Source of the DNA: Rhizodiscina lignyota | Lineage: Eukaryota | Assembly (NCBI GenBank): GCA_010015805.1 | Contig: ML978127.1 | Coordinates: 62,001-126,000, forward strand | Direction of reading: 5' to 3' | DNA length: 64,000 bases | Shown: in pieces, positions 42,694 to 54,639 of the stretch | Layout: each line of letters starts with the position of its first letter | Position numbering within the stretch: the stretch's first letter is position 1 | The notes under the pieces: model-generated | Database searches by the model: none | What the model was told of the DNA's origin: nothing | Seen by the model: only the letters and a program-made list of their open reading frames with translations | Position numbers and translations under genes: made by a program

Positions 42694-43328
42694 TCAAGAG
42701 CAAGCAGGCAGCGCCCCCTGACTCGTTGCAGTCTCCGCAAGCTGGACCTCCGCTGCCCTCCGCTTCTGCAAACCACTCAAAACCTGGCCGTCAGATTCAT
42801 CCCACTTCGGCAACTCCTGAGAAATGACCGTGTCGACGTCTTCCGAGCAGGTATTTAGGCGCGAGATGAGCGTGGAGGAAGCAGCATTTCCGCATCCGAC
42901 ATTGAAAGCCAACGAGACCAGCGCGCCATATTGGTTCGCGTTGAGGACGACGCAGCTAGCGGTATCAAGAGTAATACAGTTTTGTGCGACCTGTCAACGT
43001 TAGATTAAATGTGTGTGAAGTAAATGGTATGAAGGTGTAATACAGCAAGATCCGATTGAAGGAGCGCTTGGCCATCCGCATCGCTGAGCGGAATTGGATA
43101 TGGCACATCAGAGCAGGAAGAGTCTGAGCATAGATGACCGTAACCGATCGTTGGATTGCCAGTAGGGTCTGCGTATTCCGTTGCTGAGAACCCTTCGAAC
43201 GACTCAACCAGGCTGAGAGTCGCTTGGTTCACGCCAGGCCCGGTGCAACGAGCCTGCAGGTGGGTTGGAATCGCGAGGGTGACCGGGAGGACAGCAAAAG
43301 CTGCGACTAAGAAGATATGAGAAAGCAT
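42694..43328 (-). CDS. Secreted GH24 (phage-type) lysozyme/muramidase
   Basis: Signal/pro-peptide; SFEGFSATEYADPTGNPTIGYGH (E-x8-D-x5-T triad); intron 43043-42991; exon 2 NANQYGALVSLAFNVG..GLQKRRAAE. Confidence 0.92.
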
Positions 43329-44345
43329 GCTAGGCTATTGGATTATTGTATTGTGATTTCTGGAATTCGGATGCAATTCTAGAGAGGACTTGCCCACCTT
43401 TCACGCCATTCTTATACCCTTAAACTATACAAGAAAGGTACCAAGAATTTGATGGGGTTGACGAATGCGGAAGCTGTACAAATCGCAAAAGTAGTGTCGC
43501 AGTCACTGACGATGAAAACTCGCCTTGCGCGAAGATACTTACCAAGTACGGGTTAAGGAAGAAGCCTTCGTCAAAGTTTTACTTAAAGAGACTGAGCGCA
43601 AGACCCCTAGTGCGACTCTCTGTTTTATTGTAAGAAACTGGGTTACAGCAAATCCGAGCGATTTCATGAGAACGTGTCACTACGTCGGCCTCGTGAACGG
43701 ATCTGAGAATGGAAGGTGATGCTGATCGACAGTCCTAACGCGTCGAGAGCCGAGAATCCTACAGTAGTACGGCTTGGACCTGCATGTCGGAATGACAATC
43801 GGCGGCCTAGTTGTTCGAAGTGTCTATGTACGTAGTAGTACGAAAGCCTGAAGGATGGCGGAGGCAGGCGGAATATTGACGGTCGTAACTTTGACATGAA
43901 AGCTCACATCCTTCGGCTTGACCGGAGAACTTTTATGCCGGTGCCAAACAGCTGAGCACAGGGCTATAAAGTAAGTCTGAAATATCGGAATGTGAGGAAG
44001 ACTCTGAAATTCATGCAGAGCATTTTTGACGCTGGGGAACTCATTGGTGTCATCCTGGAGAAGCCTGAAATTTTGCATAACTTGGACATATGGTATGGCT
44101 CCAGAGGAAGGCAAAATTAAGCAGTCTTTATATCATTTGCACTCCTGGCACATTTTGGTTCACAAAGAGCAAGTAGTAAGCTGGACGTAGTTCTTAGATA
44201 GCCATAATGTATTTAAGTAACCCCATTCAAGGCCCATTGAGCATACACTAGGTAGATACTGAGTACGTCCCTTGAAGATTCCTTGCCAATATCTAAAATT
44301 GCACCTGCAGTGTATACCACTTCCTCCTCCGAGCAGTGACCGATC

Positions 44346-46542: not shown

Positions 46543-47250
46543 ATGAGCAACGCGCCAGACGATCAAAAAGGTGCAAACCGACTCGGTCTTCTGCACCGTG
46601 ACGAGCTTCTCGAAGATGGGCAGCAGCTTCATGACCAAATAACGCAGCTCATGAATGCACACTACGATGACAGGTATGTTTCAGACACCCCAGCTCGAAA
46701 GCAAGCGCTGATCAGATCTTCCAGCGGAGTGACCACACAGCTCCCTGATGGGCGTTATATTGGTCCCCTGGCCATCATGCTGCGCACGCCGTCCATTGGC
46801 TCTGCCTTCTTCGGCCTCTCTGCCGCCATATCCCGTCTTGCTGCATCTGCGAAACTCACTCCACGCGTCCGAGACGTCGCCGTCAACACTGTCGTTGGAA
46901 ATGCTAAAGCAGCATACGCCGTCTATGCCCATGGTATACTTGGAAAGCGCGCTGGGCTTTCTGATGAAGAGCTGGACGCAATCTCAACGGGGCAGAGACC
47001 GAAGACGCTAGACGAGGCGGAGAGCGTAGCGTGGGAGATGGCAAGAGATCTTTGCGTACAGCCTGAAAGGGGAGCGTTACAGGATGAGCTATGGGACAGA
47101 GGAGTGAAGGTCTTAGGAGAAGAAGGAGCGATAGCGCTTGTTCATGAAGTGGCATTCTATCAGTACATCTCGACGGTGTTGAACGGGTTTGATGCGAGAC
47201 GGCCAGATGGGAAAAGATGGAATAGAGAGGAAGGAACATGGACACAATGA
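46543..47250 (+). CDS. Carboxymuconolactone decarboxylase / AhpD-like protein
   Basis: GPLAIMLRTPSIG, LTPRVRDVA, YAVYAH..GKRAGLSDEELDAI and LVHEVAFYQY motifs of the CMD fold. Confidence 0.78.
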   Translation: MSNAPDDQKGANRLGLLHRDELLEDGQQLHDQITQLMNAHYDDRYVSDTPARKQALIRSSSGVTTQLPDGRYIGPLAIMLRTPSIGSAFFGLSAAISRLAASAKLTPRVRDVAVNTVVGNAKAAYAVYAHGILGKRAGLSDEELDAISTGQRPKTLDEAESVAWEMARDLCVQPERGALQDELWDRGVKVLGEEGAIALVHEVAFYQYISTVLNGFDARRPDGKRWNREEGTWTQ

Positions 47251-47573
47251 ATCCGAGTGGAATGCAAGTAGCTCCCATTATCAGGTAGTGTATACCTCTT
47301 CTACAACATTTTACCGCTCGCACATCCGATTGAGGCTATTTCTTCGTTTGCTTGGTGTTTAGTGTGGCAGGGAAGACAAGCACGAGAATACCATGACAGC
47401 TGAATTTATGGCCCTCTCCAAGGCTCAATCGCGGCTCATTGATTTGAAGAGGAAGAAAGTTGAAAGAGAAGGGAAGGGGACTGGGAGAGTACGGCACTCT
47501 TGCTAGGCGCACCGCTCGGGCTCTCCCGCAGGGCTACGTGATTCACTAACAACATTCGTTGGACCCTAACACA

Positions 47574-47578
47574 TATAA
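47574..47578 (+). promoter_or_regulatory. TATA box of a putative Pol III ncRNA gene
   Basis: TATAA lies ~29 nt upstream of the predicted 5' hairpin at 47603, as in fungal U6 promoters. Confidence 0.55.
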
Positions 47579-47602
47579 GTAAAATAACTTTTACATACTA
47601 TC

Positions 47603-47801
47603 GCCTTCGGGCATCGTGGGGTAATCGGTACAGAGATTAAACTGAAAAGAACGGGTACGGTTAACGTGTTGCAGGGCGGTTCGATCCCCGAAGGGATCAA
47701 AATACTAACATTTAGGCGCTCAGTGACGGACAGCACCTTCTCGTGGTACTGGGTGTGAGTAGTCTTGAAAAAGATGAAACTAAGACTGTCCATTATTTTT
47801 T
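47603..47801 (+). ncRNA. Unidentified Pol III-type, intron-containing small RNA with an antisense element to U2 snRNA
   Basis: 5' hairpin GCC-TTCG-GGC; A-box-like TGGGGTAATCGG (47617-47628); CAGAGATTAAACTGAAAAGAAC (47631-47652); intron GTACGG..TACTAAC..TTTAG (47655-47715) containing B-box GGTTCGATCCC (47678-47688); T6 at 47796-47801. Confidence 0.75.
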
Positions 47802-47812
47802 GGCATTTTTTT
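47796..47812 (+). terminator. Pol III oligo-T terminators
   Basis: T6 (47796-47801) followed by T7 (47806-47812), directly after the structured RNA body. Confidence 0.65.
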
Positions 47813-49333
47813 AAAATGTTTATTTTATTTTTTGGGATCTGTAGGCCTTAAGCGGAAACCTACCTGCGTCTTGTATTTTTTTCACTGCACCTTTCTTTTT
47901 TTTTGACTTGAGAACATCAAAAGATATTACTGGAGTATATGTGTCACTCTCTATCTTACGACTCTAATCTATAACCTCTCGGACTCTCAATAGCTTGAGC
48001 TATTCTGTAGTGGAATTAGACTGGGGAAGCTTCGTTGAGCGCTGACCCATAGCGGGATCCTCTACAGAAGTTCATCATTTCAGTCTACCATCAGTGGCCA
48101 GAATAATTGGTTAATGTCATCGGTTCTACTAATATTGTACTTGAATAATCTATAACTGTGCCCCAAATACTATTATATACATGCCAGAGATGAGACGCTT
48201 TCAACTGCGGCGGTGAAGCCGATCATTTTACAGGATGCGCAACCACTGAACGAAATGAGATAGTTTCGGCATTCGAGGAGCGCATTAGCTACAGCAATTC
48301 CTATATTGGTCCCTGTGCCTTATGAGGTCTACTCAAAAGGGTGGATCGAGCATTTGACCCTTTTACTGCCGCCGTTGCAAGCTGCGAAACGCGAGTCGAG
48401 CAGCGCCGCCTTATTGGCCGCACGCACAATGAACGTCGAACAAAGAAAGGCGTTCGCACAGGCCTCTCCTGGCTTGCGCCAACCACGAGCCTGTTAAATG
48501 CCCGGTCGGACGTCGTACCTGCGCTAGCACCCGCCGTCTTACCCTCAAACTGCCGCCAAGCAGGCCAACCTGAGACGCTCCGAGCTTGAGAGGGCCACCC
48601 GCTTCTTCCTCTCCTTCACCACCACACTGCATGCTGCCGTGCAACAGGCGAGCTTGACTGGAGGTCGCCGCGCGCCCATTGTCGCCGTCTTTGTCGCGAA
48701 GTTTGATTTGATGCAAGCCTGCCTCGTGCGCTTTATTGTCCCTCCTTTCAACACCCCCACGGCGAGACGCTCAATATCGGGTACTTCCAAATCCCAACTA
48801 TAGCCCCCCTGCCGCCCATTGTCAGACGAAGAGACGCGCCAGCTGCCACCTTACAACGGCGCTTCTACAACTCTTCAACTTCGAACGGCGCAACATTCTT
48901 TTCCTTCGTTGAAACGGGATCGCTCGGCCGCACACGACGCGGAGACAGGAGCAGCGCGCAGAGCGGGCTAGAACGACATTCATTTGTAGCACCACCTCGA
49001 GCGCTTGATGCGGATCGAACCAAACCCATTTCAAGCTGCTGACGAACAAGCGGAAAGCAGCATACACTCCCTTTACGATCTTCTACCTGCTTTACACTCT
49101 GTGTCGCAATAAGCAAACATTGGCAGGGTATATACCGCTTCACTCGACAGCCGGACTGATCTGAAACGAGGCACTTCACCGTCACCCGAACCCTATTGCA
49201 AACACAACTTATGCTTGCAGTTATTTCCGGTATAGCTGGCCTAATAACTGCTTCACACTCGTTGCGCTCATTCCAATCTCACCGCAATTCTCCACCACTA
49301 TCACAAAGCGACAAGCAGGAGCGATAAGACACC

Positions 49334-52040: not shown

Positions 52041-53477
52041 TCAGCTCTCCGCAGGCTTTGTGCGATAGTATTGCGTGAAGTCATGCATGACGGTATTCGC
52101 ACCCTGAGATTAAGTGTCAGCTATATCGGAGTCGCCCTTCTCCTACCATTCTCAAGATCAGGTTCACTCACAAGCGCCATATCCCGGCTCATTTTCCCTG
52201 TCTTGTCTGCCTCCGCTTTCTTGAGCAAATTGAAGAAATCGTCGTTCCCAATTGCCTCTGGCGAGGGATCCCACAGTCGCATGATATTCCCGCTGCTGAT
52301 GGGATCTATGACTTTCCAATACTTCTCACGGCGAATCTCGTCGTACTTGTCCAGAATACTGTCGTCTGCTTGGCCACTGTAAATGCCGTAGAGACAATCG
52401 TAAAGACCACCGACGTCCGCAAAGCCGCCGGTAAGACCCATGCCTCCGCTGGTTAAAGACTCAGCACGTTTTCGATGTTTTGAGGATAATGCGGATAAGC
52501 TGGTAGCCTGGTACTCACAATGGGTTGCATAAATGTGCAGCGTCGGCCGCGAGCAGAAATTTCCCGACCCTCAGTTTCTCGGCGCAACGCTGGTGGATCT
52601 TATATGGGCTGAAGTTGACCATCTTGTACTCGCTGGGCTCTGGAGCGCCTGGCACAAACGCCTTGTACTTCTCCGGCTGGCGTACGAGCATTTCTTCCCT
52701 GGTGAGGTTGCCCTCTTCAGCATATGTCGCACGCAGCATGCCATCATTGGAGATTTGTGCAATCATGGAGAAATGCTTTGGGTCGATCATGAAGTTGGAG
52801 CTGGTAGTCCAGTTGAACTCTTTCAAGCGGGGATAATACACCTGATCCCGATGTCAGCAATCTGCTCTTGCGGACCGAAGGGTAGGAGAGCGTACATTTG
52901 TCGCTACAATCTGCTTGTCCCAAGTCTTGCCTGGGAAATTACCAGGCCCGAAGAGCTCTCGCCGAATCTTACTGTTACCGCCGTCGCAGCCGATGATATA
53001 CGTTGCGGAGAATTTCTTCTCGCCGTCCGGCGTCTTGACGTCAACCCAAGCATGCTTGTCATCCTGTCCAATGCCAGTGACTTCGTGATTAAGCAATATC
53101 TCCGCGCTAGGATACTTCTCCAGATGGCTCGCAATCAGAGGAAGCAGTTCGTCTAATGGTAGCGACACCTGCCGCATGTCGTCTGGTAGGCCTTCGCTGT
53201 GAATGCCACAGATGTACGTCCCATCGATATGGCGCCAACTCACGCCGCTTGCCAGGAATGCTTTCGACTTGACGTCGTCCATAATGCCAGCTCGCCTGAA
53301 TTCGTGTCTGGCAGGCTCGCTGTAGAAGGATGCCCGAGGCTGCTTGTCGATTTCGTGGCTCCTTTCTAAAATGGTGACTTTGATAGATTGCTTTGCAAGA
53401 AGGAGCGCCAAGAGGAGGCCCGAAGGACCAGCGCCCACGATAATGATATTGAAGTCATCACTTGCTTTCGATGGCAT
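52041..53477 (-). CDS. FAD-dependent monooxygenase (aromatic hydroxylase, FAD_binding_3 type)
   Basis: [42 protein letters not shown]; three introns; stop at 52041. Confidence 0.9.
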
Positions 53478-54639
53478 TGTTGCGATGTATGTGTAAGATT
53501 ATTTACCTTCTATTATCGAGAATTCTACTGCTCTTTCTTAATGAGAGGGAAACGCAGCCGAAGGTCTTTAAGGTATGGGCTTAAAATTGATAGACAAGAG
53601 AGGAAGTATACAGAAAATCTACCCTACATATTTCTATTACGCCTTGATCGCGGAACGCGTGATGTCGATCATGGCACAGCGCGTCTTCGGTACATACTGT
53701 CTATCAGATGCCGAAGGATTGTGTGGGGAAGCATGTGGGGAATCCCTGACGACGATGTAGTGTAGGATAAGGATTCTCCGTGAAAGACCTCAGTGATCAG
53801 ATATCTGTGTCGTAGAGGCTTCTCGTACGACAGCCAAAATCGCGAATAACATAGGAGGGAGGGTTGTCAGTTAGCTGAGATCGTCGTAAGTAAAGATCTA
53901 AGTAAAGCTGGATCTCAGACGTCGGGCTGAAACAACCAAGAAATCTGCTTACCTCCTAGCCAAATTGAGGACATGCTCTCTCCAACGTATGCCATTTCGA
54001 AGCTGTTGCATAATCCCGCTAGCTTTGAAAAAGGGTTTCTTCTGTTTGAACTGCTCCCCACTTATGTGTTTGATGAGCGTAGAGACCACTCAATCCTTTG
54101 CCAGCCATTTAACGACTCTAACTTGTCTTGACATGAAAGTCTTGCCAGCCCTAGGCATTTGCTTGTCGTGTACGACTCGGGAGCTAGTTCTATGGATTCG
54201 AATACGTATAGGTAACCGGTAGCACTTTGTGCTCAATTATAACCCTTATAAATCACCATCACATTCCTCTTCTCAAGTGGACCATGCGAAAGATACAAGC
54301 GTGACGAATCTTGGTGGCCCGCCCGTTACGTACATAGAACCAATAACTTGGTATCCTTTTTCTCTTCAGGGACCGGGCATGCAATTAGCAATTTCCGTAC
54401 TCTTTTTATGGCTTACAGCATGCCCTTTCATTGGGTCTATTCCTCTTTTTATGATCTTCATCATCGGTTCTTAACCTCCGCTCTTCGCGTCCATTCTTCC
54501 GCAAGCTCCCCGCGCGGTGATCAGTCCGGGGTTTAGAAAGAAGATGCATATTCAAATCAGTTAATATATTTATGTGGAAGCATGGCACCCCAAAATCCAG
54601 ACCCCAAGCTTGTGGTAGGGCAACCTTCAATGCGACAAC

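Follow-up and report, generated by a model that had tools for sequence, protein, structure and literature searches.

Genomic context of the locus

The locus lies in a 2.1-kb gap between two + strand genes of the window (the whole 64-kb stretch of DNA that was analysed), a CMD-like gene and a KCH gene. This was also the position given in the initial annotation, and it was confirmed here by a UniRef label for the first gene and by Pfam PF16944 for the second. The upstream CMD-like gene (46543-47250, +) contains a single in-frame intron of 51 nt (GTATGT...CAG) and its stop codon is located 350 nt 5′ of the locus. The CMD-like protein had one match among 5.8 billion clustered proteins, with 93% identity over the unspliced frame. 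The matched protein is a hypothetical protein of Rhizodiscina lignyota with the UniRef label carboxymuconolactone decarboxylase-like, and it is apparently the window's own product. Judged from this protein search, the CMD-like gene is lineage-restricted. The KCH potassium-channel gene was found approximately 1.6 kb downstream of the locus, and its two exons matched Pfam PF16944 with E = 8e-58 and 2e-35.

Elsewhere in the window, two adjacent frames at 42697-43334 on the − strand matched the N- and C-terminal halves of Phage_lysozyme (PF00959) with E = 2e-09 and 4e-21, the first of them with a signal-peptide-like start. Together they look like an intron-split gene for a fungal secreted phage-type lysozyme. 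An ordinary FAD-binding monooxygenase-type frame (Pfam FAD_binding_3, E = 1e-26) was identified at 52857-53498 on the − strand.

Sequence elements of the locus

The elements identified at the locus are as in Table 1. The TATAA at about -29, the UUCG hairpin, the A-box and the T6/T7 runs that had been described in the initial annotation were all found on the + strand at most one base away from the positions given there. The 61-nt intron frame (GTACGG, TACTAAC, TTTAG), which had been said to hold a perfect B-box, was present as described. All nine specified letters of the B-box consensus are intact in GGTTCGATCCC and the branch-point motif has 7 of 7 letters, while the A-box-like element TGGGGTAATCGG has one mismatch to a relaxed A-box consensus. 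The predicted intron has GT and AG ends with the branch motif near the 3′ site, and its size of 61 nt is typical for the species, compared with the 51 nt of the intron in the neighbouring gene. Overall, a TATA near -30, an A-box-like element near +15 to +20, a B-box and a T-run terminator make up the plan of a Pol III gene with a TATA and A/B boxes.

Table 1. Features of the locus, with positions in the window
Feature	Position	Strand	Description	Basis
TATAA	47574-47578	+	approximately 25-29 nt 5′ of the predicted start	motif search
Exon 1 (predicted)	47600-47654	+	approximately 52-55 nt	start inferred from TATA spacing and 5′ hairpin
5′ hairpin GCC-UUCG-GGC	47603-47612	+	resembles the loop of the U6 5′ stem-loop	
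A-box-like element TGGGGTAATCGG	47617-47628	+	begins approximately 15-18 nt past the predicted start	
U6-like block, ACAGAGA and flanks into ATTA	47625-47639	+		by-eye comparison with human U6
ACAGAGA box	47630-47636	+		motif search
Intron (predicted, spliceosomal), 61 nt	47655-47715	+	GTACGG (47655-47660) ... TACTAAC ... TTTAG	
B-box GGTTCGATCCC	47678-47688	+	predicted TFIIIC site inside the intron	consensus match
Intronic hairpin, 6 bp	47683-47698	+	overlaps the B-box	folding, -9.4 kcal/mol, z = -1.97
Branch-point motif TACTAAC	47703-47709	+	7 nt 5′ of the AG of the intron	
TTTAG, 3′ end of the intron	47711-47715	+		motif search
Exon 2 (predicted)	47716-47799	+	approximately 84 nt with the U tail	
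Possible shrunken remnant of the U6 core/internal stem-loop	47757-47780	+	AGT in place of the U6 AGC	
U6-like block AAAGATGAAAC	47770-47780	+	3′ strand of the U6 internal stem-loop, 9/11 letters	
U6-like 3′ end TCCATTATTTT, into the first terminator T6	47789-47801	+		by-eye comparison with human U6
T6, first terminator	47796-47801	+	TCCATTA directly 5′	
T7 terminator run	47806-47812	+		
Further T runs (back-up)	T7 47806, T6 47828, T7 47876, T9 47896	+		

Within 47600-47795, the span of the predicted transcript (approximately 196-200 nt), T runs of four or longer are absent. The + strand of the window has 13 runs of at least six T, and five of these are located at 47796-47904, directly 3′ of the locus. 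The GC content drops to 0.34 in the 200-nt bin that starts at 47800. The cluster of T runs at 47796-47904 may serve Pol III as a multiple terminator, or it may be a nucleosome-free zone of the poly(dT) type.

Rarity of the motifs and chance control

GGTTCGATCCC alone matched the B-box consensus on the two strands of the window, TACTAAC occurred twice and ACAGAGA 13 times (both strands), hairpins of 3 bp with a TTCG loop were found nine times in 128 kb (both strands of the window) and TATAA was found 34 times on the + strand. For the chance control, 400 windows were simulated with a first-order Markov model and the motifs were counted per window on both strands. The B-box consensus was present in 41% of the 400 simulated windows, and in 5 of the 400 a B-box lay within an intron-like frame. 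None of the 400 contained the full composite of a TATAA followed by an intron frame with a B-box and then by a T6, compared with one occurrence in the real window. The ordered co-occurrence of the motifs at the locus is far beyond chance. The same composite upholds the earlier reading of the locus as having the plan of a fungal U6-type gene with an intronic B-box.

Searches for RNA families, tRNAs and homologues

A search of the whole 64-kb window with Rfam gave no matches at the gathering score, and the threshold of U6 (RF00026) was not reached. With E ≤ 10, the region 47400-48000 produced six unrelated rows of 11-17 bits against thresholds of 38-60 with no U6 among them, and exon 1 and exon 2 searched alone produced one unrelated row each with no U6, even partial. 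Overall, no described family was matched by the window, by 47400-48000 or by either exon in this Rfam check, which had been proposed with the initial annotation. The earlier statement that the locus is not a canonical U6 was borne out, with no Rfam U6 match at any threshold tried. The E-values were multiplied over 4227 families, so that a single family could be matched weakly without this becoming visible. No U4 or U2 was found in the window by Rfam at the gathering score.

No tRNA was found in the window with ARAGORN, and none at the locus with the thresholds lowered down to 70%. At 60% of the thresholds, four calls were made in 401 nt, including a poor cloverleaf over 47602-47698. Calls at this setting were at noise level and, with no tRNA at 70% of the thresholds or above, the reading of the locus as a tRNA was rejected.

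The predicted folding was no better than that of shuffled sequences, with z = -1.05 for exon 2, -0.16 for the unspliced transcript and -0.02 for exon 1. Two hairpins had been proposed in exon 2 from the sequence (tagtctt/aagactg and ggacag/ctgtcc). The two helices have three bases in common and are therefore not both formable in full. A self-comparison with blastn showed that the first 17 nt (47600-47616) are complementary at 15 of 17 positions to the intronic hairpin region 47682-47697. This pairing may reflect a long-range helix of the precursor or an acceptor pairing like that of a tRNA, or it may have been left by an inverted duplication.

No paralogues of the locus were found within the window with blastn. 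A metagenome scan with a pattern of ACAGAGA, B-box and branch point returned 27 loci, among which there were no U6 genes and no homologues of the locus. Each of the 27 turned out, when inspected, to be a tRNA T-arm or unrelated sequence. A search of viral contigs for a 26-letter U6 core motif found none.

An absence of any Pol III gene, with the locus being a decayed tRNA-like relic or a set of chance motifs in a Pol II UTR or intron, is quite improbable. Such an origin would be in line with the poor cloverleaf at 47602-47698, with the 15/17 complementarity of the 5′ end to sequence past the B-box and with the end of the upstream gene only 350 nt away. However, the 60% setting that gave the cloverleaf made calls at the level of noise, nothing was called at 70% or above, the composite of motifs was not reproduced in any of the 400 simulations, and the U6-like blocks described below would be left unexplained.

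Comparison with U6

U6 is the central RNA of the splicing machinery and the most conserved spliceosomal RNA. The locus was compared by eye with the human U6 sequence, as given in the available part of PMC5976757, and shared four collinear blocks with it. In the 5′ stem-loop block, 11 letters are common to both and the locus has two single-letter insertions. The block at 47625-47639, aligned with a single gap of three letters, agrees with human U6 in 13 of 16 letters. In AAAGATGAAAC, 9 of 11 letters are those of the 3′ strand of the human internal stem-loop, and TCCATTATTTT has 10 of 10 letters of the human U6 3′ end plus one extra T, all by the same by-eye comparison. The probability of at least 9 of 11 matching letters for AAAGATGAAAC was 1.26e-4 per offset and rises to 0.009 when all 74 offsets of exon 2 are considered. 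From the rates of ACAGAGA and of the hairpin in the window, the chance of an ACAGAGA within 60 nt of the hairpin was approximately 0.006. A 5′ stem-loop followed by an ACAGAGA box is a U6 feature that is present at the locus, and a 3′ oligo-U of the Pol III termination type is also present by sequence (T6 at 47796 and T7 at 47806). Both ends of the predicted RNA are therefore U6-like, so that the locus looks U6-derived and not unrelated to U6. The description of the product as a 'distinct' small nuclear RNA was for this reason overstated, as far as the by-eye comparison of the two ends goes.

The middle of the molecule showed a different picture. The only AGC past the ACAGAGA box is located at 47732-47734, which is 95 nt away in the unspliced and 34 nt away in the spliced form. 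The corresponding gap is 5 nt in the human U6 of PMC5976757 (available part), compared with the 34 nt of the spliced form here. The distance from ATTA to the 3′ strand of the internal stem-loop is 130 nt unspliced and 69 nt spliced, compared with 15 nt in the same U6 reference. The similarity to U6 ends exactly at the position of the AGC triad, and the locus has neither the 5′ strand of the internal stem-loop nor the U4-pairing stretch. In a weak and subjective comparison by eye with the U6 core of that reference, 47757-47780 agreed in 15 of 24 letters when a 7-letter gap was allowed. When folded, the stretch 47757-47782 gives a weak stem-loop (-3.9 kcal/mol, z = -1.53) whose loop is GAAA. The initial annotation had stated that the catalytic core of U6 is absent. 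This holds insofar as there is no Rfam U6 match and the triad and the stem-loop are out of register; however, an AGC does exist and the 3′ strand of the stem-loop is retained in 9 of 11 letters.

The point at which the similarity breaks off coincides with the intron site of fission-yeast U6, as far as that site is given in the available part of PMC5855946. According to the same part of this source, the B block of fission-yeast U6 lies inside the intron and the intron adjoins the AGC triad. Fungal U6 genes are also reported there to have at most four introns, which lie mostly close to the ACAGA box and to the internal stem-loop, and fungi to have a mean of 2.3 U6 copies per genome with a maximum of 20. 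Since fungal genomes often carry multiple copies of U6 (PMC5855946, as above), extra copies are to be expected.

A number of up to four introns in fungal U6 genes (PMC5855946, available part) would allow the locus to be the working U6 gene of the organism, masked by further introns. This is extremely improbable: no combination of GT...AG frames was found that restored an AGC 5 bases past the ACAGAGA box or the 5′ strand of the stem-loop, and the core was absent from the whole window by Rfam. Overall, on the evidence of the shared blocks and of the gene plan, the locus very likely descends from a U6 gene, and it is probably a disabled or repurposed U6 copy.

Proposed nature of the locus

The reading preferred here, which is held with middling confidence, is that of a fungal U6 gene copy without the catalytic middle, a catalytically dead U6 paralogue that would most likely be an expressed pseudogene. 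Judged from the motifs, TFIIIC would bind the A-box-like element (47617-47628) and the intronic B-box (47678-47688), and TFIIIB would be placed on the TATA at 47574. Pol III would then start at 47600-47603 and stop at the T6/T7 at 47796-47812, which would give a transcript of approximately 196-200 nt. The spliceosome would excise 47655-47715, as in the fission-yeast U6 precursor, and the predicted spliced product of approximately 138 nt would carry the UUCG hairpin near its 5′ end and a U tail at its 3′ end. With the 69-nt gap, no AGC 5 bases past the ACAGAGA box and neither the 5′ strand of the stem-loop nor the U4-pairing stretch, this product would be unable to act as U6. The absence of an Rfam U6 match fits such a core-less copy. 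The locus would be paralogous to a working U6 of the organism.

Points in favour of a pseudogene are that extra U6 copies are common, that the structure is unremarkable and that no repurposed fungal U6 paralogue was found in the literature searched. The unremarkable folding energies taken alone argue neither way. On the other side, the U6 core is unrecognisable, although the signals for transcription, splicing and termination are all intact. This pattern would not be expected from uniform neutral decay and counts against a pseudogene. As a rough inference, a divergence of 8% would leave the approximately 47 letters of the signals intact about 2% of the time. The contrast between signals and core speaks either for selection acting on the locus or for a rearrangement in the very recent past.

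Alternatively, and more tentatively, the locus may encode a functional small nuclear RNA under selection, in line with the small nuclear RNA of the initial annotation. It would then be a U6 paralogue put to a new use, or else a Pol III gene of separate origin with the same plan. Such an RNA could keep the ACAGAGA, which pairs with 5′ splice sites, and the U tail for La/Lsm, and it could compete with, or regulate, either U6-binding factors or the way in which 5′ splice sites are recognised. Intact expression signals together with a lost U6 core are the pattern that would result if expression and not U6 function were selected. The approximately 196 nt of the transcript without any run of at least four T, and the lack of a match to any Rfam family, are consistent with it as well. 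Against it, the predicted structure is no better than that of shuffled sequences, and no repurposed U6 paralogue was found in the literature searched, with only U6 copies in the available part of the U6 review. The prior therefore favours a pseudogene, within the limits of these sources. For the narrower case of a repurposed U6 paralogue, with a spliced Pol III RNA of approximately 138 nt that retains the 5′ hairpin, the ACAGAGA box and the U tail of U6, in which the core has been replaced by new sequence and which would be a non-catalytic competitor or regulator of splicing, the reading is doubtful.

TFIIIC-only sites can serve as boundary elements in yeasts. The perfect B-box and its A-box-like partner are located in a 2.1-kb gap between two + strand genes, and the locus could be a relic U6 copy that is kept as a TFIIIC-binding chromatin boundary between them, in which case any RNA would be irrelevant. 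This is unlikely, however, and it does not account for the terminator cluster, the 5′ hairpin and the splice signals all being intact.

Comparison with known systems and significance

The closest known gene is the U6 of S. pombe. As at the locus, it has an upstream TATA, an internal A block and a B block in an mRNA-type intron that adjoins the catalytic region (PMC5855946, available part). Both also have the 5′ stem-loop, the ACAGAGA box and the U tail. The S. pombe U6 is complete, whereas the locus lacks an AGC at the distance seen in U6 as well as the U4-pairing stretch and the 5′ strand of the stem-loop, and has approximately 54 extra nt after splicing. SNR6 of S. cerevisiae has a TATA near -30, an internal A block, a dependence on TFIIIC (predicted for the locus) and a T-run terminator, whereas its B block is downstream of the terminator and it has no intron (PMC5855946, available part). 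Multi-copy fungal U6 genes, as described by Canzler et al. 2016 and cited in the available part of PMC5855946, have multiple copies, clustered introns and flexible promoters, while the locus fails the Rfam U6 model entirely. For human, more than 900 U6-derived copies are given in the same part of PMC5855946, most of which are likely pseudogenes. The human copies are without internal promoter elements or introns, whereas in the locus these are the best-preserved parts.

A second RNA of the U6 kind is U6atac of the minor spliceosome, which is also a Pol III product. U6atac retains the AGC triad and the internal stem-loop, and the locus gave no Rfam match to U6atac. A minor spliceosome is not known from Ascomycetes.

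Among the small structured RNAs that are often interrupted by mRNA-type introns, U3 and U6 alone are described in the available part of PMC5832005. Nothing specific on a U6-like Pol III RNA of fungi was found in the literature searched. No details of U6 introns were found in the accessible parts of the CRISPR literature searched. The plan of the gene, described otherwise for U6 alone, supports descent from U6 together with the block similarities. Overall, the locus is probably a core-less derivative of a U6 gene, in which the promoter, intron and terminators are intact by sequence and the catalytic core is absent.

Introns are thought to enter U6 through reverse splicing. If the locus is a dying copy, it would be an informative snapshot of the death of a U6 copy, with the break at the presumed reverse-splicing intron site. 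If it was recruited, it would be a spliceosomal RNA gene turned to a new use, and a repurposed paralogue, if true, would be the first U6-derived RNA of such a kind in fungi. In either case, the locus is an unannotated Pol III-type locus that is invisible to ORF-based annotation, and it is a test case for the spliceosomal splicing of a Pol III transcript other than U6.
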